From contig CAZHCA010000008.1 of NCBI GenBank assembly GCA_964530825.1, positions 27,229 to 91,228 of the forward strand: 64,000 nt of DNA, read 5' to 3'. Shown in pieces: positions 6,121 through 24,912 of this stretch; positions within the stretch are counted from its first letter, which is position 1, and each line of letters starts with the position of its first letter. Below the pieces are notes generated by a model, which was given only the letters and a program-made list of their open reading frames with translations, was not told the origin of the DNA and made no database searches. This stretch comes from an uncultured Saprospiraceae bacterium. Its GTDB lineage: Bacteria > Bacteroidota > Bacteroidia > Chitinophagales > Saprospiraceae. A program made the position numbers and the translations under genes.

Positions 6121-7100
6121 GCAGCTTCCGCACATCGTATATCCCAAAAAGGATAATTAAATTTAGGGCATGGATCCTCAAACCTACTCCAGCAAAAACC
6201 TTGACCATCTGGGCCTGGTGGCCGGGATGCGCCGGGAGATCGGGGTCAGTGAAGTCATCGATCGTTACTGCTATTCCGAGCGGGAAGATCAGATAGTCCC
6301 AACTGGCAAAGCGCTTGAGGCTATGATTCTCAACGGTCTGGGCTTTGTCAATAAACCATTCCTCGGTTTTTCAGCGATAAACCCGTTGAGCGGCTGCTCG
6401 GCCCCGGCATTGAAGCCGAACACCTAAATGATGATCGCCTGGGTCGGGCCCTGGACCAGTTCTACGACACAGGACTGACCACCCTATTCACCCATTTGAG
6501 CCGCCGTACGTTGCAGACTCTGGATTATTTTCCTACTCAGGGCCATCTGGACACCACATCTTTGAGTATTTATGGTCGCTACAACTCCGAGGAAGAAGCG
6601 GTAGCCGAATTGCATGTATAGCAAAGATCACCGGCCGGATCTACCCCAGGTAACCCTGCAGTTGATCGGTGAGCAGCTCAGTGGTATTCCACTGCACCTG
6701 GAAGTGCTCAGCGGCAATAGCAGCGATAGCGACTCCTTTCGCCAGACCATAAAGCCCCTAATATTGTCGCCTCCTCCTTCTTTGTCAAAAAGCCCGAACG
6801 GGTAGCCGCCCTGGTATTTGTCATGGCGGCCGGTCTGTTGGTCTACAGCGCCCTGGAATACCGCACCCGCCAGACCCTAAGCCATGAAGATAAATCCGTG
6901 CCGGATCAAAAGGGCAAGCCCACGCAGCAACCTACGGCGCGTTGGATCTTCCAATTGTTCATAGGCTTGCACGTGCTAAACTTACCGGATGGACAGATCA
7001 TCCTAGTGAATCTCAAGGAAGTACATCGGGATATCCTGTCGCTGTTATCCTACTGGAATTTTTATTCTTGATTTTTGGATATACGATGTGCGGAAGCTGC
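6121..7100 (+). mobile_element. IS1634-family element, internally deleted non-autonomous derivative
   Basis: Perfect 24-bp terminal inverted repeats: GCAGCTTCCGCACATCGTATATCC (6121-6144) and its exact reverse complement (7077-7100). Only 980 bp long, with the transposase N- and C-termini present and the middle missing. Confidence 0.8.
6170..7071 (+). pseudogene. IS1634-family transposase, frameshifted and missing the central DDE region
   Basis: N-terminus KNLDHLGLVAGMRREIGVSEVIDRY...KALEAMILNGLGFVNKP (DUF4277-like). A shifted frame gives ...ERLLGPGIEAEHLNDDRLGRALDQFYDTGLTTLF. C-terminus SFFVKKPERVAALVFVMAAGLLVYSALEYRTRQTL...PTARWIFQLFIGLHVLN. Confidence 0.75.
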
Positions 7101-7111
7101 GAATTAACACA

Positions 7112-7145
7112 CAAAAGTCCTTGAAAATCAAGAACTTTTGTTTTT
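7112..7145 (+). terminator. Intrinsic-terminator-like hairpin plus T-run
   Basis: CAAAAGTCCTTGA-AAA-TCAAGAACTTTTG (12/13 bp paired) followed by TTTTT. Confidence 0.55.
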
Positions 7146-7539
7146 CACCCCCTTCTAACTCGTTTTTCTAACTTATTGATTATCAGCACATAAGCAAATT
7201 GTTTACTTTCAAAATGTGTTCAATTTAGGGGGTCTTACTTTCAAAAGGGAGAGGGTTCAATCCCAGACGAAAAACCTCCTATTTTCCTGATTACCAGTCA
7301 ATAACAAAGACCTTTATGCATCTCACCAAACAATTCCTGTAAAAATGGAGTCCGACTAAGCTTTTTGCAATTCCTCGATTCCAGTCGCCAATGTGTTTTA
7401 ATGTGTTATTTGGTGTTTTGCTGAGGAATATTGAAATTCTCCGGTATATACAAGAAATACTGCTTAGGGCCATCATCGCCGAAAAGCTCCTATCCCTACG
7501 GGGAAGGGGCGTCGACTTTATTTACCCACCAAACCCACC

Positions 7540-12112: not shown

Positions 12113-13999
12113 TTAGTCTTCAACTTCTTCTACAAAGTGGTGTAACCCCCAGATAGACTCACATATAGTCTGATATAGTTGTTGACGATTAACGACATCC
12201 TGCTTTTTAAAGTTCTTATGCGGCTCAAAGGGTAATCCCAGCCTTTCTTTCATCTTGATAAAGTTGGGATTATTCCGATAGGTTAGTTCACAGAGCGTTT
12301 GAGCCAACAAGTTTTCCTTGATGTAGTGTTCCAGCTTTTCATCATAAGGCTTGGCACTAAACGATTGATTTGTTCCTCTCGGAAGCAAGATCAAAGCACC
12401 TAAACGGTTTCGATATTCTTGAAAGTCGGTTTCTTGCTCGAATTCATCCCTGTGCTCCAAGAATTTATCGGCCCAGATATGCTCCACCTCAAAGGGCTTG
12501 CCACCGGGGTTAGAGAAGTATTTCTCAAAACTGGAATTCAATCCCGTTTCACGCTCAACATAACCCGTCATACGGGCCAGCAAGAATTTTACAAACCGCC
12601 TATTTTGCCCATGCAGCCTAAAGCGTTGTATCCCACTCCAGTCTTCCTCCATTTCGGCCAGTTTTTTATAGAGAATATCCTTTAAGGTCCGCAAATCTTT
12701 TCGCCTAATTTCTTTAACCAGGGTATACATGGTGTAGCGAATTGAACTGGAGGCGAACTTGCGGAAGTTGACGGAGCGCCTTACCACAAACGTTTCGATG
12801 AACCGCGCGACCGCATTCATTTTCTGAAAAATGACCTGATCATGGTCTTCTTTTCGGAGAGGAGACACAAGTAGTGGGTAACTTAATGAGTTGGCGATAC
12901 CCCAGCGCTTGATATAATACACATGCTCTAAGCCTCCGATCAGCTCTTTTTCTGCCCTGAGAATGGATAGGTATGCTTTTAGAAAGAACTTGAAGTCCTC
13001 GTCAATAAATCTTTGAAAATCCCCACTTTTTTCGGAATCCAGAGGGATTTTAAGCAGGTTTTCCCGAAACCAATTGTGGAAGCGGGTACCTATTTTCTCG
13101 AAGTCCTCATTCTTAGAGCCAGCTCGTCCAGGACGAATAGTCTCCGCATACTGTGCTCTCAGCCAGGCCTGAATAAAGCGTTGATCCTCATCTTTATCGT
13201 AAGCATGAAGTTTTTGCATGGAGCGTTTCCAAAGTTCATTGGCCTTTTGTCTCTTTTGATCTTCGCCAAATCTGGATAGGATGAATCCTTTCAGCATTTC
13301 GGTAGGAGTCAGGTTTAACCCCCGATCATTCATCGTTTCAAAAATGGTATAGGCATTTTCATCAGAATAAGCCATAATCTCTACCAATATCACATTGTAC
13401 TTCAACCAATCTATAAAGTATGGTAATGTTTCGCTTTTGATTTCTTCTGGAAAAGCGTTTTCGATGTCTACATAACGGGCTGCCATGTTTTTAGTAGACT
13501 CATCATCATATTCGGTTACTTCATAGTCCCCTTCTTTGAATAAAGCTTCCAGACAGGGCGTTCGCTCTTCTACTTGAATATTAAAGGACTTCTTGCCAAA
13601 TTTCTCAGAGAAGATGTAGGACTCTAACTTCTCTTCGTGCCCCAACTTCTTTTGCAAGTTGTTCAAGTAAATGAGTAGAAGTGTAAGTGATGTAAGACGC
13701 TGCTGACCATCAATAATACTCCGCTGACCATTCTTAACACTAACGACAAATGGCCCTAAATAGTAAGAATTATAGTTCTCAATCTCCGGCCTTTCGTGCT
13801 CCTCTTTATACTCATTTAAGAATGAAGAGGTGAGGTCTGAGACCAACTGCTCAATATGTCGTTCTTCCCATTTATACTCACGCTGAAAGAAATCGACCGT
13901 ATATTTTTTATCATCCAAAACCTCAGCAATAGATCGGTCGTGGGCCTCAATTTTGTTGGTTAGTTTGCTCATACAATGACTTAGCTGAATTTTTTCCAT
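12113..13999 (-). CDS. DUF262 (ParB-like NTPase) + DUF1524 (His-Me finger) protein, GmrSD/BrxU-like type IV restriction nuclease
   Basis: FFQREYKWEERHIEQLVSDL and IIDGQQRLTSLTLLL (the DGQQR motif). C-terminal FEVEHIWADKF. Start set at the ATG at 13999; the ORF is open to 14122 but would overlap the upstream gene. About 40% GC. Confidence 0.8.
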   Translation of the reverse strand: MEKIQLSHCMSKLTNKIEAHDRSIAEVLDDKKYTVDFFQREYKWEERHIEQLVSDLTSSFLNEYKEEHERPEIENYNSYYLGPFVVSVKNGQRSIIDGQQRLTSLTLLLIYLNNLQKKLGHEEKLESYIFSEKFGKKSFNIQVEERTPCLEALFKEGDYEVTEYDDESTKNMAARYVDIENAFPEEIKSETLPYFIDWLKYNVILVEIMAYSDENAYTIFETMNDRGLNLTPTEMLKGFILSRFGEDQKRQKANELWKRSMQKLHAYDKDEDQRFIQAWLRAQYAETIRPGRAGSKNEDFEKIGTRFHNWFRENLLKIPLDSEKSGDFQRFIDEDFKFFLKAYLSILRAEKELIGGLEHVYYIKRWGIANSLSYPLLVSPLRKEDHDQVIFQKMNAVARFIETFVVRRSVNFRKFASSSIRYTMYTLVKEIRRKDLRTLKDILYKKLAEMEEDWSGIQRFRLHGQNRRFVKFLLARMTGYVERETGLNSSFEKYFSNPGGKPFEVEHIWADKFLEHRDEFEQETDFQEYRNRLGALILLPRGTNQSFSAKPYDEKLEHYIKENLLAQTLCELTYRNNPNFIKMKERLGLPFEPHKNFKKQDVVNRQQLYQTICESIWGLHHFVEEVED

Positions 14000-14081
14000 T
14001 AAAAACGGTTCTATACCGGCAATGAGGAGGTTTGGAGGCCCATACCACTTCGTGAGCGGTATAATAACCTGAGATTCCTCC

Positions 14082-16775
14082 TCACCACCCCTTCCCCAAC
14101 AACTCCCGTACATCGACCTCATTCAATACCTCCTGGTACGATTCAAAATCGGTAGCATCAATGCGGTCGTAGCGAATCTCAAAGGCACTGCGGGTCTCAA
14201 CCTGCCGAATGCGCTCCTGTGCTTTCTCTTTCTCTCCCAGGGCGACGTCCACCCAGACGTCTTGCAAGATGTCCGGTATTTGCCCGAAGATGCTGAAGAT
14301 ATTTTCCAACCGATCACTCAGCAATTCATGGACCCGGTCTTCTACCGTACCCCGGTAGCGCATGTTGTAGACCTTGACAGTATCTAACCGCTGCCCGATG
14401 CGTTGAATGCGGCCTTTGCGCTGCTCCAGGCGGGTCGGATTCCACGGTAAGTCTAAATTGATGAGGGTGCCGAGGCGCTGTAGGTTGAGGCCCTCACTGG
14501 CACTGTCGGTGCCAAAGAGGATACGGATGTCATCGGATTGTACCGCTCGCTTGATCGTTTCTTTTTCTACCCGCTGATACCGGCCCTTTAGCCAAACACC
14601 TGATTTACCGGAGCCCGCGTATACCCCAATCTTCTTATCGGGATGTGCCCGGGCTACCCGCTCGGCAAAGTAGTGGACTGTATCGTAATATTGGCTGAAG
14701 ATGATGCACCCCAGATCAGCCCAGCCGCTCTGAAAAAGAAGTTCGTTGAGTCGTTCCAGCTTGGGATCGGCATCGGTGTATTCGTCCAATTGCCGGATCA
14801 GGCGTTGCAGGATCTCTTCCTGCTCCGGACCGATCCGGGCGGCAATACCGGTAGGGGCTTCTTCTACCACATCGTCTTCTTCCTCTTCCTCCATCCATTC
14901 TGGATCGTGGCCCAGCATTTTGATCGCCGTTTTGCGGCCGGCTTCCATACTACTGCCAATGCGGCGCAACAGCAGGGTTTTGATAAATCCAGCCCCCTTC
15001 ATGACTTCTCCCAGAGACGTACTAAACTCTTCCGCCGTGTGGTAGGCATCTTCCAGATACCCCTTCAAAGGAATGGCATCTTTGGGCGCTTCGCCGTACA
15101 GAACTACTTCGACCTTTTTCAGGAAAGGCTCTCCGGTTTCTTCATTGATGGTTTCTTCCAGAAATTTGCGGGTGCGGCGGACAATATGACGCACATAAGG
15201 ATTGTACTTCTCGAACAGCCCATCTTCCCGCTCAATCGACCGTTTATAGCCGGGATTGAGCCGATCGACTGTTTCGGGCTTCAGTACAAAATCGCGTGGA
15301 GTCATCTCCAGGGCCCGCCGAATGCGTCCAAATAAGCGGTCGTTTTCATAAGCCGGTGGAAACGGGTGGCGCAGCCATTCCCACAGGCGGTGTTTGTCTT
15401 GAAAGGTGCGTGCGGTGCCATCGACCAGCTTGAAGCTTGTTTCTTTGGATTGGGTACGCCACCAGGAAAAGTCATTCCCCAGTACATGGGGAGCTCCTGC
15501 ACCTAAGACACACAGCAGGTCGTAGGCCTCGATCGGATATAATTGTACCGGTGTAGCCGTTCCCAACATCATGCTTTTGGTGCGGGGAGATAGCTGCAGC
15601 AGAAAGGCCATCATATTATTGGGCTCAGCGGGCTCCTCCTGTCCGTTTTCCTTCAGGTTCCTTCGTCTTGATCGGTGAGCCTCATCCACGATGACACATT
15701 CGTATTCTTTTTCCAGTAAACGCTGCACGACGTCCGAACCCCGAATTACTAATCCCTGACTAATGATACCAAAGCGGCGTGGACATTTGAGAATAGCTTT
15801 CTTTGGATTGTTATTTTCGTGTACGTGGCCGGTTTCATCGATCCAGGTGTTCTTATCCCAAACTGCCGAAGGTAGTCCCAGTAGCTTCAGGAGTTCATCT
15901 TGCCACTGATAGACTAGCGTTTTAGGCGCAATGACCAGGACCGGCTTATCGCTTTGCAAGGCCATGAGCATAGCCGCCATAGCTAATTGGACCGTTTTGC
16001 CCAGGCCCACCTGATCGGCTAAGACAAAGCGGGCCCCTCTCCCACAGCGATGTTCTTCATAGGCTAGCTTGACAAAAAATTTCTGGTGACCCCACAAACC
16101 AAAATGCTCCCGGTAAATGGGATTTTCTACTACCGCCGCTTCGGGTTCCGGCTTTTCCCGCCATTTATCCAGGGGGACTACTTTGCGCCCACTCAAACGC
16201 TTGATATCCGTGATAATCGCCTCAGAGAGCGAACAGGCACGGGCGTCATTCCACAGCGTATCAAACTCTTCCTGCACCCAGGTGACCGCTTCTGGCGAAG
16301 GGTCTTCCCAGATCAGCTCGTAGTTCAACTGCCAGCCCGATTTGCTCTCGTTGGCACTGCCTAAAAAAGCCGTTTGACTGCCATCTTCGAATGTTAACAC
16401 CCCGGCCTTGCCGTGGACCAGCCCAAAGGCTTGATCGGGCAGCACGCGGATTTCCAGCTTTTCAGAAACGAGTAATTGATATAAACGAGATAGGCGCTCC
16501 TGCAGACCGTCGTTATAGCGTTGGTCGATTTCTTTTTTCCACTCCTGCGTCAATGCCAGGTGGGCAGCCTTGGCTGTTTGCACATCGAGCGGATCGAGGG
16601 ACGAATTGGCAACCATGCGTACCTTTCCCGGCATCTGGGCGATAGCCTCTCCCGCAATCTCCAGCATGGAGGAACTGAAGTAACCCGCGATACGGTCGTA
16701 TCGTACAGCCTTTTCCAACCGGTCCCGAAAAAAATGCTTGCCTAATGATTGCCGACGGGAGGAGTAGCGTTGCAT
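14082..16775 (-). CDS. PLD-nuclease-domain / SNF2-family helicase fusion
   Basis: N-terminal single HKD motif (LVHGKAGVLTF...FLGSANESKSGW). Helicase motifs DQVGLGKT, VIVDEAHRSR, MLGTATPVQ and LNLQ...DLPWNPTRLEQRKGRIQRIGQ. Confidence 0.9.
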   Translation of the reverse strand: MQRYSSRRQSLGKHFFRDRLEKAVRYDRIAGYFSSSMLEIAGEAIAQMPGKVRMVANSSLDPLDVQTAKAAHLALTQEWKKEIDQRYNDGLQERLSRLYQLLVSEKLEIRVLPDQAFGLVHGKAGVLTFEDGSQTAFLGSANESKSGWQLNYELIWEDPSPEAVTWVQEEFDTLWNDARACSLSEAIITDIKRLSGRKVVPLDKWREKPEPEAAVVENPIYREHFGLWGHQKFFVKLAYEEHRCGRGARFVLADQVGLGKTVQLAMAAMLMALQSDKPVLVIAPKTLVYQWQDELLKLLGLPSAVWDKNTWIDETGHVHENNNPKKAILKCPRRFGIISQGLVIRGSDVVQRLLEKEYECVIVDEAHRSRRRNLKENGQEEPAEPNNMMAFLLQLSPRTKSMMLGTATPVQLYPIEAYDLLCVLGAGAPHVLGNDFSWWRTQSKETSFKLVDGTARTFQDKHRLWEWLRHPFPPAYENDRLFGRIRRALEMTPRDFVLKPETVDRLNPGYKRSIEREDGLFEKYNPYVRHIVRRTRKFLEETINEETGEPFLKKVEVVLYGEAPKDAIPLKGYLEDAYHTAEEFSTSLGEVMKGAGFIKTLLLRRIGSSMEAGRKTAIKMLGHDPEWMEEEEEDDVVEEAPTGIAARIGPEQEEILQRLIRQLDEYTDADPKLERLNELLFQSGWADLGCIIFSQYYDTVHYFAERVARAHPDKKIGVYAGSGKSGVWLKGRYQRVEKETIKRAVQSDDIRILFGTDSASEGLNLQRLGTLINLDLPWNPTRLEQRKGRIQRIGQRLDTVKVYNMRYRGTVEDRVHELLSDRLENIFSIFGQIPDILQDVWVDVALGEKEKAQERIRQVETRSAFEIRYDRIDATDFESYQEVLNEVDVRELLGKGW

Positions 16776-16787
16776 GGGGATTAGGGT

Positions 16788-17282
16788 TTATTCTTCCACT
16801 CGAGGGCTTTGCTCCAATATTTTATACGGACTGACTACTGGCAGCAATACACTGCGAAATAAGGTCCCCTGAAGGCGTTCTAAGATAATTCCGCGGGAAG
16901 TAGAATACGCAATACCAATCATTGTTGCAGCCAAGTGCTGGTCTATCATGGGATTTTCTTCCTTATCGTACTGTACGAAATCAGAAAAGTTATCCATGTG
17001 AAAATGAAATTCGATCCCGTATTCGGCTTCTAATCCAATCTCTTCCTGTGTATCTTTTTCTAGTGCAACCAACTTAAAAAAAAGTCTGATACGGGTTAAA
17101 CCAGCTTCAAGGTTGTGCGCAATCTCTCGCTCAACCCCCATATTGAAATTAGCCGGGGCATCTACATCCAATACGGGCTTTTCTAACAATTCTGGAGCTG
17201 TTTCCAAACTGCCCTGAAATACATTGATACTGAATAAATGGATCTTATTGGGATCGATAGTCGGCCTCTTGCGCTTACTCAT
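16788..17282 (-). CDS. SecB-like chaperone candidate (third gene of a TAC-type module)
   Basis: 164 aa, SecB-sized. The by-eye strand/helix pattern parallels E. coli SecB: IHLFSINVF~FQIQRIYTK, TRIRLFFKLVA~YEVVLRVTVTA, LEAEYGIEFHF~LCEVQQGGIFSI, LAATMIGIAYSTSRGIILERL...LLPVVSP~[21 protein letters not shown]...NLAPVNF. ATGA overlap with the upstream HTH gene. Confidence 0.45.
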   Translation of the reverse strand: MSKRKRPTIDPNKIHLFSINVFQGSLETAPELLEKPVLDVDAPANFNMGVEREIAHNLEAGLTRIRLFFKLVALEKDTQEEIGLEAEYGIEFHFHMDNFSDFVQYDKEENPMIDQHLAATMIGIAYSTSRGIILERLQGTLFRSVLLPVVSPYKILEQSPRVEE

Positions 17283-17701
17283 GCGACGCTGATTTTAAGC
17301 TGAGAAGAGCGCTTCCCCTTATCTGAGGCAACTTCGCCCGTTGAATATTTAAGGTCTTTATGGCTTAGCTTATTCTGGACAGCGTGGTACCGCATGGTCG
17401 CAAAATGAACCTTGCTATAGGTACGACGTGCCTTCTGTGGTGTCATAATAATATCTTCCTCCAGTATAGCTTCCATTTTGGCAATACTGCGCAATGTGAG
17501 GTTGTGCGAACCACTGAGCCATTTACTAATTTCAGCACTAGTTTTTCCCAGCTTTTTGGCCAGGTCACTCTGTGTCCATCCTTTTTCCTTCAACAAAGCA
17601 AAAACTTGCTGAGAAATATCCAGGTTTTTATCCACAAAGCGTTCTACATCTGCCGGGCCTGGCTCGGCGAAAAACTGCTCAATGCTTTCGTACTTTTTCA
17701 T
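17279..17701 (-). CDS. XRE-family HTH protein (HigA-like antitoxin candidate) with a ~55-aa C-terminal tail
   Basis: HTH LKEKGWTQSDLAKKLGKTSAEISKWLSGSHNLTLRSIAKMEAIL. Tail ...RRTYSKVHFATMRYHAVQNKL.... ATGA overlaps at both ends. Confidence 0.75.
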   Translation of the reverse strand: MKKYESIEQFFAEPGPADVERFVDKNLDISQQVFALLKEKGWTQSDLAKKLGKTSAEISKWLSGSHNLTLRSIAKMEAILEEDIIMTPQKARRTYSKVHFATMRYHAVQNKLSHKDLKYSTGEVASDKGKRSSQLKISVA

Positions 17702-18201
17702 AGATAGATTGGTAATTCTGGATCGTAAACCAATAAATCAGTTTCCGGATCCAATGAAATGTCTTTATCGTATTGTGCTTGGCTAATAGCCTTGGTTAGT
17801 TTGTTGGCTAGACGGAAATGACTCGAAACATTAGGACAATCTTGTGCAGAATTGGCTGTTTTTTCTGCTCCATCAAATAAAATAACGGCCGATCGACTCA
17901 TCCACATACAATACAATCGAAGAGAACAATCCATGTTCAGGTACCTGGCCGGGGGTGGAAAAGCTTTAGCCTCTCCATCACCGGCACCTTCTACACGAAA
18001 ATATCGGCGATCCGCTCCAATTTCATTTCCGAGCTTCTGCAGCCATTTTCTGATTACAAATAATTCTTCTCTGTATTCCTCCTGACTATGTTTTTGTATG
18101 AAGTTTAAAAACATAGAAACGGGTTCGCCATCAAACTGGACCGAATAATACGTGATCCGCTTGAATTGAATTGCTTTCGTTATGTAGACAAAATTACTCA
18201 C
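17698..18201 (-). CDS. Putative toxin (RelE/HigB/Gp49-like core) upstream of the XRE gene
   Basis: GTG start. ...RYFRVEG...AFPPP...LRLYCMWMSRSAVILFDGAEKT resembles the remembered Gp49/HigB-like 'LRLYCxRxxxxxxILxxGGxK' core. Toxin-first order as in higBA. Confidence 0.45.
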   Translation of the reverse strand: MSNFVYITKAIQFKRITYYSVQFDGEPVSMFLNFIQKHSQEEYREELFVIRKWLQKLGNEIGADRRYFRVEGAGDGEAKAFPPPARYLNMDCSLRLYCMWMSRSAVILFDGAEKTANSAQDCPNVSSHFRLANKLTKAISQAQYDKDISLDPETDLLVYDPELPIYL

Positions 18202-18236: not shown

Positions 18237-21212
18237 TTAACCCACCGCATCGTTCTCCACGTACCCGCGCAGCAACTTCGCGGCTTCCACATCCTTGCTC
18301 CAGTGGGGGATGCTCTCCGTTTTCTTGATCATATAGCCCAGGATGGCCAGAATGAGCGACCGGCTGTTCCAGTAGTCGGGCCACTCGTGGTAGAGCCAGT
18401 TGCGGCCCTCTACCGGGTCTTCGGTGCGGTGTACTTCGTGGATGGCGAAGAGGATCTGACGGGTGAGGCTGCCGCCAAAATCCTCCCCGCTCAGGTCTTT
18501 GTTTTTGTACTCGATGGGGGTGATCAGCCGGGTGTGGTTGGCTTTTACCTTCAGCAGGTGGCGGTACTCTCGCAGGCCGTAGCCCCGGGCCATTTCCGTG
18601 TAGACGCCGCTGCGGTACTCGCCGCCCTGCTCTACTTCCAGCCCCTTGAGGTAGAAGCGCTCAAGGGGACTGAGCTTGCGCCATTCCGCTTCCGCAAAAC
18701 CGTTGGGCACCAGGGCGTCCATGGCGACGCGCACGGCGGAGTCGATGATCTTCACGATCTCGCTTTCGTCGCCGCTCTGCCGCTCTTTGCTGAGCTCGTA
18801 CTCGACATCGATCTCGCCCAGACGCTTGTACTTGGTGAGCTCGCGTAGGGCCGCTGCGTAGGCCGCCAGCTGATAGTCGGCATCGCCGAAGTTGGGGTCG
18901 TCTTTATCGTCGATCTGCTGCATGAAGGCGATCTGCTCCTTCACGCCGTACTCCACGTCCATTTGTACATCCGAGAGGAAGCCGATCTCCTCGGAGTCTT
19001 GCTTGCGCAGCACCATGATCACGGTGCCCTGCACGTAGTTGCCTTTTTTGATGCCCCCGGCATCGGTCTCGGTCTGTATGGTCCAGGCGGCGGTGACGCG
19101 CAGGCCCGAGGCCCAGAGGATGAGCGCCAGGTCGGCCCAGACCGCCGAGTCCTGATGGGTGAACATCACCACCTGCGCCCCGGCATCGGGCATGTGCCGG
19201 GTGAGGTTGCGGTACACCTCCACCATGGAGCGATTGAAGGATTGGCCCTTGCCTTTGACGGCCAGGGCGGACTTGCTGTTGGTGTGCCATTCCGGGAAGA
19301 GTTGTTCGAGGTGTTTTTGATGCCACGCTAGAAAAAAGTCTCCTAATTCATGATAATTAATGGCGTCGGCGTAGGGTGGATCAGTTATCCAGAAAGAACA
19401 TTCAAAATTAACACTTCTTGCATCTAATGTTCTTAATTTAAAGTTTGCATCAAATTTATTATCAGAAGGAACATTAAATAGGAAATTTTCCTCCATTGCT
19501 TTAAAGCCTTTGGCAGGAGGATTGAAAATTGTATTTAGGGCTTGATTCGAAAAAGTATCTCCAGTAGAACCTATACCGCCTGATCTTGACATTGTAGCCC
19601 GCCACCTGATTAATCTAGAATTTAAATTCGCCAAGTTTCCAAGTGAAAGAAGAGAGGCTATTTTTCCATTTGTCTTACTTTTTTCAAGTCTCTCAGAAAT
19701 TGATCCTAGGTAAAATAGTTGCCTAGGATTAAACAAATGATGCCAGTAGGTCCAGCCGCGCTCGCGTATGGGCTGTTCGGTATTGTATCCTCTGGGAATT
19801 TTAGTCGAAGGGATGTAGCCTTTCTCCTGCCATTCGGCAAAGCGTTCCTGCAGCAGCGCCAACACCTGCGCTTCCCGGGCCAGGTCTTCGGAATTAGGCG
19901 CGATATAGTGGCGTTGGGTTTTCTTTTTGATGGCTTTGCGGTCCAGCTTGTCTTGAAAATCCGGCCAGGCCTCGGCTTCCGCTTGTGTCCAGGTGATCTC
20001 TGGATTGTTGGCGTCCTCGTACCAGGTTTCCAGGTAGCGAATGCAGTAGAGGCGCTCCTGAAAGGTATCGTCGGGCCGGGGCACGAGGTCCTCGTTTTCC
20101 CACATGCGCAAGCCATAGCGGGTTTCGCCCTCCACCCGCCGGTCGCCCCGGATGGTGGAGATGTTGTGCTCGGTGTCCGTTTCCGGACAGACCAGGCGGC
20201 CGTTTTGCACCGTACCCGTTTTAGCGGCAGCGAAGGTGGCCGCATCGGCCCCTTCGATGATGTCAATATGGTAGCGCTGATTAGCGTGGTCGGGACGCAG
20301 CACGGCACAGACTTTATATTTTTCCGAGATCACCCAGCTGGGCGCCAGGGGCACCCAATAGCCGGTGGCCGGACTTTTGGCCTCCACGCAGTACAGGTAA
20401 GCATCGGCCCGCCAGCCAGCTTCATTGTGCTCGATGCCCCAGGCGGTGATTTGCTGATCCACGGCCTCGAATACTTCTCGTTGGGCTTCCTCAATCTCGG
20501 CTTTCACCTCCGGGCCGCCGCCCACAATATTGATCGAGGCCCAGGTAAGCAGGGCCGCTACCGGGTTGAGGTCACTGCCGTAGGCCTGACAGCCCAGGCG
20601 AGCCGCCTCAAAGGGAATGGAGCCGCCCCCACAGAAGGCGTCGCCTACCCGCGGAGTATGGCCAAATTGTTGCTGGCCCATCTGTTCGACCCATTCGGTC
20701 AGGCTGTTTGCCGTGGTGCCGCAGTGGGCATTGATCACCTCCCAGGATGCCGGCGAAGGCCCTTCGATCTGCTCGGGACGGTCGCAGAGGCGCAGCTTTT
20801 CGTCGTACGACAGGCGCTCGAAAGCCAGTTCCTGGACCTCCGCCTTCTGCTCGCGCGACAGCTCATTTTGCCAGGCCCAGCTTCCTTTGGCGTTTTCCGT
20901 AAGGTATTGAGCACGCTCTCCATCGGTCAATTGTGCCGCCAGGTCCTTGGCGGAAAGATTCTTACTGCGGCGGCGGCGCAGGCCCTCTTCGTCCATGGTC
21001 ATCAGGCGCAAAAAGACCTCCTGATCTTTGTCGGGATCATCGGTAGCCGGCAGCAGGAGGCCGATAAGGGTCGCCCGCACCAGCACCAGCGGCTTGCGCC
21101 CCCACCACTTGCCCAGGCCGGTCAGGGTCTGACCAGAACCGGCTTTACGCTCCTTATAGCTTTCCTTGGAGACCTTGGAGACCGGAAACTGTTGTTCAAT
21201 AAAAGCGGGCAT
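18237..21212 (-). CDS. DUF1156-domain DNA methyltransferase (COG1743-type N6A/N4C MTase)
   Basis: N-terminus FIEQQFPVSKVSKESYKERKAGSGQTLTGLGKWWGRKPL is the DUF1156 hallmark. SAM motif I DAFCGGGSIPFEAARLG and catalytic motif IV DPPYADAINY. Confidence 0.9.
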   Translation of the reverse strand: MPAFIEQQFPVSKVSKESYKERKAGSGQTLTGLGKWWGRKPLVLVRATLIGLLLPATDDPDKDQEVFLRLMTMDEEGLRRRRSKNLSAKDLAAQLTDGERAQYLTENAKGSWAWQNELSREQKAEVQELAFERLSYDEKLRLCDRPEQIEGPSPASWEVINAHCGTTANSLTEWVEQMGQQQFGHTPRVGDAFCGGGSIPFEAARLGCQAYGSDLNPVAALLTWASINIVGGGPEVKAEIEEAQREVFEAVDQQITAWGIEHNEAGWRADAYLYCVEAKSPATGYWVPLAPSWVISEKYKVCAVLRPDHANQRYHIDIIEGADAATFAAAKTGTVQNGRLVCPETDTEHNISTIRGDRRVEGETRYGLRMWENEDLVPRPDDTFQERLYCIRYLETWYEDANNPEITWTQAEAEAWPDFQDKLDRKAIKKKTQRHYIAPNSEDLAREAQVLALLQERFAEWQEKGYIPSTKIPRGYNTEQPIRERGWTYWHHLFNPRQLFYLGSISERLEKSKTNGKIASLLSLGNLANLNSRLIRWRATMSRSGGIGSTGDTFSNQALNTIFNPPAKGFKAMEENFLFNVPSDNKFDANFKLRTLDARSVNFECSFWITDPPYADAINYHELGDFFLAWHQKHLEQLFPEWHTNSKSALAVKGKGQSFNRSMVEVYRNLTRHMPDAGAQVVMFTHQDSAVWADLALILWASGLRVTAAWTIQTETDAGGIKKGNYVQGTVIMVLRKQDSEEIGFLSDVQMDVEYGVKEQIAFMQQIDDKDDPNFGDADYQLAAYAAALRELTKYKRLGEIDVEYELSKERQSGDESEIVKIIDSAVRVAMDALVPNGFAEAEWRKLSPLERFYLKGLEVEQGGEYRSGVYTEMARGYGLREYRHLLKVKANHTRLITPIEYKNKDLSGEDFGGSLTRQILFAIHEVHRTEDPVEGRNWLYHEWPDYWNSRSLILAILGYMIKKTESIPHWSKDVEAAKLLRGYVENDAVG

Positions 21213-21218
21213 GGGGTA

Positions 21219-21911
21219 TTATTTTTTAGCGGGGTAATCGTTTTCTTCTTCAAAAAGCAGAAGTTTTTCCTCGTCGAGCAGGGCCTGCGTGTAGGTACCT
21301 TCCGGGATGGGGTTCTCGGTGAGGGCAAAGCGCAGGGCTTTGCGCCAGCCGCGGCCACGGCCGTTCTCCGGATGGCCGGTGGCGGCATTGGTGATGGTAT
21401 AGAGCCACCACCGCTCTTCGGGGCGCAGGCCCAGCCAGTTTTCCACGGCCTGATTGGCACGGTTGGGGTCGGCCTCTTCCATGGCCCACAGCAGCACCAT
21501 CAGTTCCTTGCCGAAGAGGCGATGCACATAATTGAGCCCCTGCTTCCAGGATACGCTTTTTTTAGTCGCCTTGGAGGCCCGCAGGCGTTGGTTGAACTCA
21601 CTGCGCAGGTAGCGTTCCAGCAGGTCCCAGCGGGTGCGACTGAGGCGCACCTTGCCGGTATAGCCGGGTCCCAGGAAACGCATTTGCAGTCCCTCCACCG
21701 TCATCTCCGGGTCGTACTGATACAGCTCGTGTACCGTCACCTCCTGTTTTTTGGAGCGCGGAATCACCACCACAAAGTGGTGCTCACTTTGGGCCGGTAC
21801 AAAGCCGAAGTCGATCAGCTGCTTATGCTTCGATGCGTTGCTCAATATCTTGTGGTTTGTATTCCAGATTGGTATCGCGTACAAAATCGAGAAAGTTTTG
21901 GCCGCTGGCAA
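21219..21911 (-). CDS. DUF3780-like small protein of the DUF499/DUF1156 module (start uncertain)
   Basis: Sits between the DUF499 and DUF1156 genes, as remembered for this module. The conserved-looking start region is LIDFGFVPAQSEHHFVVVIP. The ATG at 21911 overlaps the upstream gene by 89 nt, and an alternative TTG lies at 21845. Confidence 0.5.
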   Translation of the reverse strand: MPAAKTFSILYAIPIWNTNHKILSNASKHKQLIDFGFVPAQSEHHFVVVIPRSKKQEVTVHELYQYDPEMTVEGLQMRFLGPGYTGKVRLSRTRWDLLERYLRSEFNQRLRASKATKKSVSWKQGLNYVHRLFGKELMVLLWAMEEADPNRANQAVENWLGLRPEERWWLYTITNAATGHPENGRGRGWRKALRFALTENPIPEGTYTQALLDEEKLLLFEEENDYPAKK

Positions 21912-24900
21912 ATTGGAGGCGGGAAAGCGCCAGGCTCAGCTCGCCAGTATGCAAAAGCTTATCCCAGACGAAATTCACAGCTTCCTCTATTTGTGCAGCT
22001 GTATATTTCACGGCTCCGTCCACTTCCATAGTCAGCCATTGATCACCATCTACATTGATCGCCAGTCCATAGCCTTCCACCTCATGCTTTTCGAGTTGCT
22101 TCAGGAATTGAAAGGTTTCGGCCGTGGTGGTCATGGCTGTGCGTTTTTTATAGGTCAGCGGAATCACCGGATTGATTTCCTTATTGGGGTTTGCTCCCCG
22201 GTTCGGCAGGTCGAACTGCTTGATATCCGACAAAAGGTCATCCTTTTTCGCTGCGGCGAGGATTTTGGTTTTGGGTTCCGCTACAAAAGAAGCTTCGTAA
22301 ACAGCGCCGTATTCCAGGGGTTCGCTCCCATCGGTAGAATAGTAAATATCGGTATTGCGCGGAGCCACGGTAAACTCGACGCGAAAAGCATCACCCTGCG
22401 GATAAAAATCGTATTTCAGGTCGATGGTATTTTGCCAGACTACCGGATCGCCTACTTCGTGCTCGCCCTCGGGGTCCACACAAAGGAAAGACACGTAGAG
22501 CTCATCGGTAACTAGGTCCTTCTTGGTATCCCATTGAGGATCATTGGTAGTCACCTTTTGGCCGTAGGCGTAGTGGACGATGGCGCCACGTACCGGTTGG
22601 ATGCGCAGGCGCATTTTGCCGGTATCGGTATCGCGTCCCATTTCCTGTACCCGCACACTGGTGGGAGGCTTGGGAAAAGGTCCGATCTTGATCCAGTTCC
22701 CATCCTCGCGCCAGTGGTCTTTGGTGACTTGTTCGCGCTTCACCTGCTGCAGTGCGTTGGGTTTGTGCCACACCCAGGCGGTATCGGTAGCCGCTGATTC
22801 GACCACTTCGTTCCAGGGCCGCTCTTTCTGCCCCTGAAACAGTTTTTGCTCCAGCTGCTGCAAAAAAGAGTCCTTTTCGATCTCGGTAGTAAACTTGCGT
22901 TTATCGATCATCGCCTGCCGGATCTGTTCTTCTCCGTCAAATTTATTCTGTATGTACTGCAGGTTGATGTTTGAGTCCATCAATCCCCGCCTGGTTGGAA
23001 AAGTCAGCTTGGTAAAGATATTGGTCGTCGCCGAATAGAAGCGAAAGCGGTAGGTACTGAGCAGCTCCTCTACTTCCTGGTATTGAGGGTCGTTGGTAGG
23101 CACTTTGTCGCTCTCAAATTCGGCCTTGACATCCTGCGCTGCCCGAATACTTTTGGCATTATCAAATACCGTATCGATCGATTGCTGATCGCCGGTCAGG
23201 AAAAACACGCGGTTTTTGTAGCGTAGGTTGTCGTACCAGGCCTGGAGCTCCGGGTGCAGTCCGCCCTGGGCATAGGGCTGGAAGATAACGAGGGAGACGG
23301 TATCTTTTTCCACGTCAATTTCATCCAGGGCGGGCAACACATACAGGCGCTGATAGAGGTCTTTCATTTTGGGCTCAAAAAGCTCTTGCAGCAGGGTGCG
23401 CATTTCTTTCCGGATCGCCTCCGGATTGTATCCTTTGCGGTAGCTATTCACTTTGGCCGATACGTTGGCTACATCCTTGTAGAGCAGGGCACCGCTTTTG
23501 TCCACGTGCAGGTACCAGGAGCGTTCGCGCAAGGCCGGGATGACGGCGGTCTTCAGCTGCGTGATATCCACCCCCGGGGCAGCCAGCATAGCGGTGATCT
23601 CATTCATTTTGAGGCCCTTCAGTCCGCCCTGCACCATACTGAGGGAAGACATAAAGAGGAGCCTGGCCGCTTTGACGGGTAGATCAGTCTGCAGCTCTTC
23701 TGCGATCTTTTCCGCCGCCGCATCCCCTCCGGAGGCGATGTCATTCGAGATGGCATTAATGAGCTTATTATTGATCTCGTTGAGCTGGGCATTGACGCTA
23801 TCGTCGTTCGGGTCGATATCGTATGGGTGGATCAGGTAGCTCCGGTCGGCCCAGCCGTGTTGGGGATCAAACATGCGGGCCGTAATAGCCCGCATCAGGC
23901 GGATAAGGCCCCGCGTCTGCATAAAGCCGGGATTTTCCTTAAAGCGAGCGTAGAGTTCCCGCATAGCCGGGTGGAAAGGATAGCTTTCGCGAATGGCGGC
24001 TTCGATTTGCCGGGGCGATTCGTTCGTCAGCTCCATCTTTGCTGCCTGCTCCACCTCTTTGCTGTAGGCGGCGGCCGTCTCTTTTATCACTTCTTCCGGT
24101 ACTTCCTCCGTAAAGAGGCGCTTGCGCAAAATGTGGTAGATCTCATTTGTATTTTGCCGTACCGGGGTAAAGTTTTTCGCAACACGTTTAGTCTCTTTCT
24201 CAAAATCACCAAGCAACTGATCGATCTGCCCTGACCCTTTGGCGTAGGCATTCTGCAGATCGGAAATGACTAGCGCTACGTTGGAAAGTTCCTCTTTACC
24301 GATGGCGTTCAGTAAGGTCGTCAGGGCACGGGCCGTTTTGTCGGCCAGGGTACCGAGGCCACTTTGCACCGTAGCCGAATAATTGAGGTAATCGGGCAGC
24401 TCATCCAGGAGAATGAGCGTGGGCTCTCCTTGCAGCAGCCGAATCCAATCGGATTGGCCGGGTGGTTCGCCCTCCTTATTGAGTTCCTGGAAGACGTCCT
24501 TCTTGCCGATGCTGTCGGCGATAAAGGTCCAGATACCATTCTTGGGTTTTTCTCGTCCGGAAAAAGCAACGACCCGCGCTGATCCACGAAAGGAAGTATC
24601 GTACACCGCACTCATGACCGGCTTGCGGTATTCCGGGAATTTGGCCAGCAGCCCCACCGCGATCATGCTGTGGGTTTTACCCCCACCCATCGCCTGGGTT
24701 AGCTTAAAGACACCATCATCCATGGAGCCCTCCATGCGGCGAAATACGCTGGTGTAGAGCTGTTCCATGCCTTTAGTGATGTAGTTTTCGGCGAAGAAGC
24801 GATCTGGATCGATTTTGTCCTCATTCAGGTCGGTAAGATCGAGGACCACGTCTTTATAGCTTTGGTCAAACACCGACTGCCGCGGTGTAAGCAAGGAGCT

Positions 24901-24912
24901 GAGGTTTTGCAT
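21823..24912 (-). CDS. DUF499-family P-loop ATPase (COG1483)
   Basis: Walker A AMGGGKTHSM, Walker B PTLILLDELPDY. About 1030 aa, as typical for DUF499 proteins adjacent to DUF1156 methylases. Confidence 0.85.
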   Translation of the reverse strand: MQNLSSLLTPRQSVFDQSYKDVVLDLTDLNEDKIDPDRFFAENYITKGMEQLYTSVFRRMEGSMDDGVFKLTQAMGGGKTHSMIAVGLLAKFPEYRKPVMSAVYDTSFRGSARVVAFSGREKPKNGIWTFIADSIGKKDVFQELNKEGEPPGQSDWIRLLQGEPTLILLDELPDYLNYSATVQSGLGTLADKTARALTTLLNAIGKEELSNVALVISDLQNAYAKGSGQIDQLLGDFEKETKRVAKNFTPVRQNTNEIYHILRKRLFTEEVPEEVIKETAAAYSKEVEQAAKMELTNESPRQIEAAIRESYPFHPAMRELYARFKENPGFMQTRGLIRLMRAITARMFDPQHGWADRSYLIHPYDIDPNDDSVNAQLNEINNKLINAISNDIASGGDAAAEKIAEELQTDLPVKAARLLFMSSLSMVQGGLKGLKMNEITAMLAAPGVDITQLKTAVIPALRERSWYLHVDKSGALLYKDVANVSAKVNSYRKGYNPEAIRKEMRTLLQELFEPKMKDLYQRLYVLPALDEIDVEKDTVSLVIFQPYAQGGLHPELQAWYDNLRYKNRVFFLTGDQQSIDTVFDNAKSIRAAQDVKAEFESDKVPTNDPQYQEVEELLSTYRFRFYSATTNIFTKLTFPTRRGLMDSNINLQYIQNKFDGEEQIRQAMIDKRKFTTEIEKDSFLQQLEQKLFQGQKERPWNEVVESAATDTAWVWHKPNALQQVKREQVTKDHWREDGNWIKIGPFPKPPTSVRVQEMGRDTDTGKMRLRIQPVRGAIVHYAYGQKVTTNDPQWDTKKDLVTDELYVSFLCVDPEGEHEVGDPVVWQNTIDLKYDFYPQGDAFRVEFTVAPRNTDIYYSTDGSEPLEYGAVYEASFVAEPKTKILAAAKKDDLLSDIKQFDLPNRGANPNKEINPVIPLTYKKRTAMTTTAETFQFLKQLEKHEVEGYGLAINVDGDQWLTMEVDGAVKYTAAQIEEAVNFVWDKLLHTGELSLALSRLQFASGQNFLDFVRDTNLEYKPQDIEQRIEA

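Follow-up and report, generated by a model that had tools for sequence, protein, structure and literature searches.

A hypervariable, AT-rich module exchanged by recombination within the methyltransferase gene of a MANTIS-type phage-defence operon

Why should the gene for a conserved DNA methyltransferase turn sharply AT-rich in mid-frame and then return to the composition of its surroundings? The question is raised by mtsC, which encodes a DUF1156 N6-adenine DNA methyltransferase of 991 amino acids (aa) on the minus strand at 18237..21212 of the window, by which we mean the whole stretch of 64,000 nucleotides (nt) analysed here (contig CAZHCA010000008.1 of assembly GCA_964530825.1, from an uncultured Saprospiraceae bacterium). 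A first-pass annotation, made from the letters alone, had marked a patch of about 410 bp at 19328-19740 and read it as a cassette swapped in from a low-GC donor, which may have changed the specificity of the enzyme or restored its activity. We find that mtsC is a mosaic gene in which a segment was replaced by recombination, that such replacement recurs among its homologues, and that an AT bias at this place is family-wide. We consider it likely that the patch is an allele of a hypervariable module, gained by recombination, which sets or helps to set the 6-bp site of MtsC.

The limits of the patch were examined through codon usage. GC content at third codon positions (GC3) is ~0.8 on both sides and 0.1-0.3 across codons ~490-634, and the other open reading frames (ORFs) of the window have a GC3 of 0.63 +/- 0.04. 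The step therefore sits in synonymous sites and goes beyond amino-acid composition. When mtsC is compared with its two closest relatives, the contigs L010 and L001, AT-ending codons run from W490 to ~H634 and define a low-GC imported tract of 435 bp at 19310..19745 (minus strand), with a GC content of 0.355 and a GC3 of ~0.24, against 61% and 0.77 in the remaining mtsC. GC is 0.346 between 19328 and 19740, and the earlier hand counts of 0.25 for 19381-19480 and 0.64 for 19141-19240 proved exact. The lowest-GC 413-bp stretch of the 64 kb starts at 19331 (0.349; mean 0.518 and standard deviation 0.053 over 6359 sampled stretches of this size). The only other 413-bp stretch with GC below 0.37 lies at ~7021-7480, in an AbiE-like region upstream of the operon. 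The frame is open, as the first-pass annotation had said: the minus-strand ORF of 991 codons is uninterrupted and its translation contains the peptide that had been quoted for the patch. The tract does cover the catalytic motif IV, and its extent is wider than had been described, since it includes the NPRQ motif, the most variable part of the protein, motif III (D597), the DPPY of motif IV and the first half of the next helix.

Evidence that this tract has a history of its own came from close relatives. The best full-length homologue (P0002, on metagenome contigs L001-L004) has 90-96% protein identity to MtsC outside the patch and 46% inside. The flanks of L010, a contig of a Saprospiraceae metagenome-assembled genome (MAG), are closer still, with nucleotide identities of 95-100% in many 60-nt blocks, and this gene carries a third allele. 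Outside the module the backbones of the window, L001 and L010 genes are 87-100% identical at the DNA level, and at one and the same place they carry three unrelated alleles, which are pairwise ~30-50% DNA-identical (the chance level for their composition), differ by indels and are all AT-rich (GC3 ~0.1-0.5). A maximum chi-square scan with two breakpoints gave a value of 513.8 with breaks at 19718 and 19391. These delimit a hypervariable core of aa 499-607 (19392..19718, minus strand), which shares 37-46% protein identity with the L001 and L010 alleles. By the Nei-Gojobori method, the flanks of the window and L010 genes differ by 0.24 and 0.30 synonymous substitutions per site (dS) and 0.02-0.03 nonsynonymous substitutions per site (dN); for the flanks of L001 against the window dS is 0.4-1.0. 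In the core (aa 499-607), the proportion of synonymous differences (pS) between the window and L010 is 0.77, which is saturated, and dN is ~1. The adjoining 3' part of the tract (aa 608-640; 19293..19391, minus strand) comprises strand beta4, DPPY (19371-19382) and the helix AINYHELGDFFLAW; here pS is 0.97 and dN is 0.07, although this is the segment that codes for the conserved WITDPPYADAINYHELGDFFLAW. Where the protein is conserved, saturation at synonymous sites cannot be the product of positive selection in place; it shows DNA of a different history.

Maximum likelihood trees of 45 sequences reject one another. The flank tree fails on the patch data (delta lnL 742; approximately unbiased (AU) test, p = 4e-31), and so does the patch tree on the flank data (AU p = 2e-4). 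The saturated patch between flanks of low dS, the chi-square value and these mutually rejecting trees bear out the proposal of a recombinational replacement from a low-GC source. The first-pass annotation had held that low GC at the same place in homologues, combined with a congruent phylogeny, would speak against a swap. Homologues are indeed low in GC at this site. Their patches, however, are unrelated in sequence and disagree with the flanks in phylogeny, which upholds the swap despite the shared low GC. For its suggestion that the exchange restored activity, no support was found.

The two ends of the tract differ in character. At the 5' end lies an anchor of 41 nt (RGWTYWHHLFNPRQ; 19720..19760, minus strand) encoding R-G-W-T-Y-W-H-H-L-F-N-P-R-Q, which is identical in the window and L010; directly past it the two sequences become unrelated. 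The anchor is likely to be the upstream crossover zone, to judge from this sudden loss of similarity. At the other end, 19293-19391 can be read from the alignment as the downstream crossover zone. L010 is back to GC-rich codons right past DPPY, and the window and L001 return only at ~codon 634-640. Tract ends that vary within conserved stretches point to homologous recombination, since site-specific recombination would give fixed ends. The first-pass annotation had also drawn attention to an inverted repeat built from two CCTAGG sites near the 5' junction, and both sites are present (repeat arms at 19703-19710 and 19722-19729). They belong to an imperfect inverted repeat of 14 nt (19700-19713 / 19719-19732), 86% complementary, in which the CCTAGG copies lie 17 bp apart. 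One arm, AAT CCT AGG, consists of the N-P-R codons of NPRQ and is found in L010 as well; the other, TAC CTA GGA, belongs to the window-specific allele. The repeat was considered as a recombination site and rejected, because one arm is coding for N-P-R and the repeat as such is absent from both L010 and L001; for the same reasons it is probably incidental. CCTAGG is under-represented in the window, with 4 sites against 12.7 +/- 3.7 expected from dinucleotide-preserving shuffles. The invariant Arg of NPRQ (R497, 19722-19724) is encoded by AGG in 32 and by AGA in 13 of 75 genes from many phyla, and the other invariant Arg positions of the same genes are mostly CGN. The AGG/AGA usage at R497 may be left over from an AT-rich ancestry, or the anchor may be conserved at the nucleotide level.

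The exchange is not peculiar to this operon. We compared the identity of the core (aa 500-607) with that of the backbone in an alignment of 282 homologous sequences, and the two correlate at only 0.27. Among 86 protein pairs with backbones 90-97% identical, 90% have cores less than 50% identical. Core identity in close backbones is either ~0.25-0.5 or at least 0.8, and this bimodality indicates discrete alleles. When identity was followed position by position in 297 pairs with backbones 85-98.5% identical, one deep trough appeared at aa 501-610 (range 0.19-0.58), with minima of 0.19 at 511-520 and 581-590 and of 0.24 at 571-580. Its edges are abrupt: identity falls from 0.96 at aa 491-500 to 0.34 at 501-510, and it stands at 0.97 at 611-620. 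Shallow secondary troughs occur at aa 401-420 and 471-480. The 206 non-redundant proteins form 127 core clusters at 60% identity and 65 backbone clusters at 80%. A segment that is hypervariable between near-identical enzymes and decoupled from their phylogeny is what one looks for in a specificity module. Module swapping is thus a recurrent, family-wide property of MtsC and not a single event.

The same segment is AT-biased across the family. In 110-codon windows along 75 genes from many phyla, aa 501-610 have the lowest GC3 relative to the gene mean, with a deficit of -0.145 overall and -0.19 where gene GC3 exceeds 0.5. GC3 of this segment is below the gene mean in all 45 GC-rich genes and in 65 of the 75 (Wilcoxon p = 3e-12); in AT-rich genes it is lower in 67%, by -0.07 on average. 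The window of minimum GC3 starts at aa 491-551 in 43 of the 75 genes. Regression of patch GC3 on gene GC3 gave a slope of 0.64 (r 0.75), and mtsC of the window is the most extreme case (0.24 vs 0.77). On predicted viral or proviral contigs from IMG/VR, patch GC3 was lower in 17 of 19, and of the other two contigs one had an equal and one a higher value; none of the alleles on these 19 contigs is more than 37% identical to the window patch. Conserved codons within the zone have a GC3 of 0.27-0.46 and conserved codons elsewhere 0.58 +/- 0.09, so that amino-acid composition does not explain the bias. A cluster of rare codons, as for a translational pause, was rejected as the cause of the trough because the bias is AT-ward also in genes where AT-ending codons are common. 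Several GC-rich genes (L057, L064 and L054) have almost no trough. The five loci that share an allele with a diverged relative (L062, L063, L048, L039 and L059) have deficits of ~0 to -0.21, and the most extreme alleles, which include those of the window and L001, have deficits of -0.37 to -0.53. The smaller deficits of shared alleles fit import followed by amelioration, in a small sample. We infer that the module behaves like DNA that is always on the move, and such DNA is in general richer in AT than resident genes are.

What, then, does the module do? MtsC carries motif I as FCGGG (aa 193-197) and motif IV as DPPY (aa 611-614). A DUF1156 domain lies at its N terminus (Pfam E = 8e-22), PADLOC DUF1156_MTase matches the protein from end to end (E = 1e-282), its PADLOC match to PglXI is weak, and its homologues go by the name 'anti-phage-associated DUF1156 domain-containing protein'. 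Judged by its gene content, the operon is a MANTIS (Gao_RL, type-2 related to bacteriophage exclusion (BREX)) phage-defence system and mtsC encodes its predicted methyltransferase and specificity subunit. PMC12839542 describes this four-gene core as the 'type-2 BREX-related' system. Gao_RL has been renamed MANTIS, with MtsA as the DUF499 protein, MtsB as the DUF3780 protein, MtsC as the methyltransferase and MtsD as the PLD-helicase (bioRxiv 10.64898/2026.09.23.753747). According to the same preprint, MtsC hemimethylates an asymmetric 6-bp site and by itself sets the specificity of both methylation and restriction, and MtsA and MtsB act on it through transient, unmapped contacts. MANTIS restriction needs all four proteins. 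When aa 445-527 were exchanged between two MtsC proteins of Pseudomonas aeruginosa (Pae), the site changed from CAACAC to CAACAG without toxicity (bioRxiv 10.64898/2026.09.23.753747).

We located this experimentally swapped segment in the MtsC of the window. The numbering of the preprint (F241AGGG, D621PPY) is matched by the homologues P0226-P0235, which were aligned to our protein. In this alignment Pae 444-527 correspond to aa 393-503 of the window protein and the patch corresponds to Pae ~520-645. The idea that the patch is the swapped segment itself was therefore rejected; the two adjoin, with an overlap of ~7 residues. Differences between P0226 and P0228 amount to 38% in 444-527, 22% in 528-620 and 3% elsewhere, and by this comparison natural variation in Pseudomonas includes the part homologous to the patch. 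In the proteobacterial clade to which the enzymes studied by experiment belong, the variable zone spans Pae 451-620 with its minimum at 591-600. A mini-motif at aa 473-484 (19761..19796, minus strand), within the swapped part of the target recognition domain (TRD), reads GYNTEQPIRE in the window and GDKTEEPKRT in L010 and L001. It occurs in a few discrete states, G-YNT[DE]QPIRER (the window), G-[DAV]KT[DE]EP[IK]RTR (L010 and L001) and G-[AD]ET[DT]RL[FG]RER, which recur both in the clade of the window and in the ~40% identical Pseudomonas clade. As it lies inside the segment whose exchange changed one base of the P. aeruginosa site, it may form a loop for reading bases that has only a small set of solutions.

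In BREX-related (BR) methyltransferases the TRD is a large insert between Rossmann strands 2 and 3 (PMC12839542). An AlphaFold2 model of MtsC based on 142 sequences (mean predicted local distance difference test (pLDDT) score 89.3, predicted template modelling (pTM) score 0.85) was read as secondary structure; a first run with 35 sequences, in which pLDDT was below 50 across the patch, was set aside. The model places beta1 at 188-191, beta2 at 209-213, beta3 at 591-594 and beta4 at 607-610, followed by DPPY and a helix at 620-638. The insert between beta2 and beta3 thus covers aa 215-590 and contains aa 499-590, so that this part of the patch lies where a TRD is expected. It is modelled as helices at 496-509 and 514-530 followed by a loop or hairpin region with short strands. 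In the model, the module corresponds to the C-terminal third of the nested TRD insert plus motifs III and IV. Conserved islands within the patch (SRLxRW at 532-537 and TFxNQALN at 553-560), presumably scaffold, alternate with variable islands at 501-531, 538-552 and 561-590. A PDB search found no solved relative of MtsC. Between the window and L001, MtsA, MtsB and MtsD contain no hypervariable low-GC patch; the lack of a co-varying patch fits a determinant without a co-adapted partner, as would be expected if MtsC alone reads the DNA. Because the module adjoins a segment of MtsC with experimentally proven specificity, a specificity role is plausible, and sequence and model together suggest that the module likely has a role in DNA specificity.

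The genes around mtsC are those of the named system. All four components (DUF499, DUF3780, DUF1156 and PLD-helicase) are present and in order by Pfam and PADLOC: a DUF499 ATPase, a stand-alone DUF3780 protein, a DUF1156 methyltransferase with a nested TRD and an HKD/PLD-SF2 helicase, which is the gene set of MANTIS, Gao_RL or type-2 BREX-related systems. The stand-alone DUF3780 protein is specific to the type-2 BREX-related systems. On the minus strand, mtsA (21823..24912) encodes the DUF499 AAA+ ATPase (Pfam DUF499 E = 1e-25; PADLOC DUF499 E = 2e-193, full length), mtsB (21219..21911), between mtsA and mtsC, the DUF3780 protein (Pfam DUF3780 E = 1e-46), and mtsD (14082..16775) the PLD(HKD)-SNF2 helicase-nuclease effector (Pfam PLDc_2, SNF2-rel_dom and Helicase_C; PADLOC PLD_Helicase E = 6e-240). 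The ORF listed for mtsB has 230 aa and a TTG start. Its L001 orthologue has 198 aa, 32 residues fewer, and similarity begins at ~residue 31, which makes a true start downstream of 21911 probable. MtsA diverges most between the window and L001 in one block (aa 871-930; 22123-22302), which is 63-67% identical, against ~90-100% elsewhere, and has normal GC3; it lies in the Fn3_assoc / CHB_HEX_C_1 Pfam region (aa 844-899), upstream of the C-terminal RRM, and the latter has been called hypervariable (PMC12839542). Three small low-GC genes on the minus strand at 16788..18201, matching PADLOC PDC-M64A/B/C and including one for a helix-turn-helix (HTH) protein, fill the slot between mtsC and mtsD; they are separate from the mtsC patch and form a second mosaic piece of the operon. 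The slot is variable, and L001 (9187-11386) has genes for a SLFN_AlbA_2/HATPase_c_4 protein and a ParA-like ATPase there in an operon otherwise ~90% identical. A GmrSD-type nuclease gene (12113-14122, minus strand) neighbours the MANTIS genes. The operon occurs in 2 of 151 genomes of the host family, namely the source genome and one of 150 others, the MAG to which L010 belongs, so that the system is sporadic in the family. Full-length mtsC homologues, 37-50% identical, are found on 21 predicted viral or proviral IMG/VR contigs (L098-L118) and on plasmids of many phyla, which shows that the system travels on mobile elements.

We propose that an incoming, divergent mtsC allele of AT-rich origin recombined homologously with the resident GC-rich gene. 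Plasmids and the predicted viral or proviral contigs could supply such alleles. In this account one crossover fell in the NPRQ anchor and the other between motif IV and the FPEWHTNSK-coding region, both in nucleotide-conserved stretches that encode the flanking motifs, and the product would be an intact enzyme with a new recognition module. Since MtsD follows MtsC, modification and restriction would change together. A new specificity might then be favoured because it escapes phages adapted to the old one.

The serious rival to this explanation accepts the exchange by recombination and disputes the property under selection, which could be escape from an anti-MANTIS inhibitor that phages encode and that binds this surface, or an altered interface with MtsA or MtsB, through which MtsC is loaded and activated. 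Hypervariable surfaces of defence proteins are often targets of an arms race. The proven specificity segment lies upstream of the patch, and the contacts of MtsA and MtsB with MtsC are transient and unmapped (bioRxiv 10.64898/2026.09.23.753747), which leaves room for such a role. We nevertheless judge it fairly unlikely that specificity is not involved: MtsA, MtsB and MtsD show no patch that co-varies with the module between the window and L001, and in both clades the variable zone extends without a break from the proven TRD segment, and it lies within the strand 2-3 insert that is termed the TRD.

The remaining rivals dispense with an exchange. Divergence in place, by hypermutation or positive selection (for example through a diversity-generating retroelement) with drift towards AT, would account for a trough at the same place in every lineage and for the failure to find a donor. 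It is very unlikely, given that saturation of synonymous sites extends to the protein-conserved DPPY segment, next to flanks with a dS of 0.24-0.30, that alleles differ by indels, that tract ends differ among relatives and that core identity among close backbones is bimodal. The source genome, moreover, has one mtsC and one copy of the patch; no silent cassette, template repeat or paralogue of the patch was found in it at the DNA or protein level. The template repeat expected for a target of a diversity-generating retroelement is therefore lacking in the whole genome, and only short, chance-level repeats surround the patch, so that the locus does not have the makeup of a shufflon or phase-variable switch. 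There is a slim chance at best that low GC at this place reflects conservation and selection at the level of DNA or RNA (a pause at rare codons between domains, a promoter within the gene or an RNA element) and does not betray foreign origin. In favour of this, the trough in GC3 extends across the family, and the only two sigma-70-like matches of a 3.4-kb region both fall inside the patch; this count, however, does not exceed the shuffled expectation (2 vs 1.6). The AT-ward bias of AT-rich genes contradicts a rare-codon cluster, the GC-rich genes L057, L064 and L054 do nearly without a trough, and the sole Rfam match is not credible, being outside the patch and far below the gathering score. 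A selected feature would also leave unrelated sequences in near-identical backbones unexplained. The faintest probability goes to an assembly chimera in which two co-occurring mtsC alleles were joined at the conserved 41-nt anchor. The genome is in 111 contigs, and k-mer graphs could collapse at anchors of this length. Yet four independent assemblies of the L001 allele show a low-GC module within a GC-rich backbone, and the same architecture occurs in a single-chromosome assembly of 6.75 Mb (L007) and at dozens of other loci; with a single mtsC in its own genome and the frame and all motifs intact, the gene of the window does not look like a chimera.

Several observations weigh against a recombined specificity module as we propose it. 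The segment with proven specificity adjoins the patch and is not identical with it, with the small overlap given above, and the tract carries elements of the catalytic core that are not part of the TRD (aa 591-640, with motif III at D597 and motif IV). In a separate search with the patch, as the first-pass annotation had recommended, the best match among 5.8 billion proteins has 60% protein identity, and the donor allele was not found. No near-identical allele was found in another backbone, and in the alignment of 282 sequences few pairs have a module identity clearly above that of the backbone. The persistent AT bias, finally, is not explained by swapping alone. A bolder version, which we offer tentatively and regard as possible yet doubtful, would make the NPRQ-to-DPPY module, and not the upstream segment tested in P. 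aeruginosa alone, the main natural specificity cassette of MANTIS methyltransferases. It would be drawn from a very large cross-phylum pool of alleles, which perpetual mobility keeps AT-rich, and it would be inserted at nucleotide-conserved anchors (the 41-nt identity and the AGG of R497). If true, the anchors would be a natural, portable site for the reprogramming of MANTIS.

MANTIS was characterised only in 2026, and its methyltransferase decides which targets are protected and which destroyed. The window, L001 and L010 amount to a natural experiment that delimits an exchanged segment of aa ~499-607, which brings motifs III and IV with it. This naturally exchanged segment differs from the one tested so far and offers precise boundaries for chimeras. 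Across phyla, the turnover of the module outpaces the divergence of the backbone. For annotators, a steep dip in GC3 immediately before DPPY should be taken as normal in DUF1156 genes of this family and not as an assembly error or a pseudogene.

Among known systems, the nearest are MANTIS of P. aeruginosa AZPAE15024 and Pae6684I, which have the same four genes and whose MtsC, from the same methyltransferase family, conserves motif I and DPPY. The P. aeruginosa proteins are only ~40% identical to MtsC of the window, and the window operon, unlike theirs, has a three-gene insert between mtsC and mtsD. Divergence between close P. aeruginosa systems is concentrated in the central TRD (bioRxiv 10.64898/2026.09.23.753747); in the clade of the window the deepest variability lies between NPRQ and DPPY, whereas the segment tested in P. 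aeruginosa is just upstream. The main text of the preprint does not mention GC content or recombination (bioRxiv 10.64898/2026.09.23.753747). The exchange of TRDs in Type I hsdS, as described for Xylella fastidiosa, resembles that of mtsC in that variable modules are set between conserved flanks which serve as recombination anchors, the remaining system is conserved, alleles are many, and allele and strain phylogenies are incongruent (bioRxiv 10.1101/2022.09.01.506293). Type I systems differ in having the module in a separate specificity subunit with two TRDs. In mtsC a single module is nested in the catalytic methyltransferase, and the imported tract takes motifs III and IV along. Type III mod genes (phasevarions) are alike in that one methyltransferase guides modification as well as restriction, the latter carried out by a helicase-nuclease partner, and in that a central variable domain between conserved ends is exchanged horizontally between strains and species. 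They belong to another methyltransferase class and architecture and have no DUF499/DUF3780 partner, and the repeat-based phase variation typical of them is absent from mtsC here. The BrxXI (PglXI) methyltransferase of type-3 BREX is homologous to MtsC and has the same TRD insert between Rossmann strands 2 and 3 (PMC12839542), but it works in a six-gene BREX system with PglZ and without the DUF499/DUF3780 proteins. The exchange of TRD alleles is thus of a known kind in restriction-like systems and is met here in a newly characterised family; what goes beyond PMC12839542 and the MANTIS preprint is the position of the exchanged module relative to the tested segment, its rate of turnover and its AT bias.

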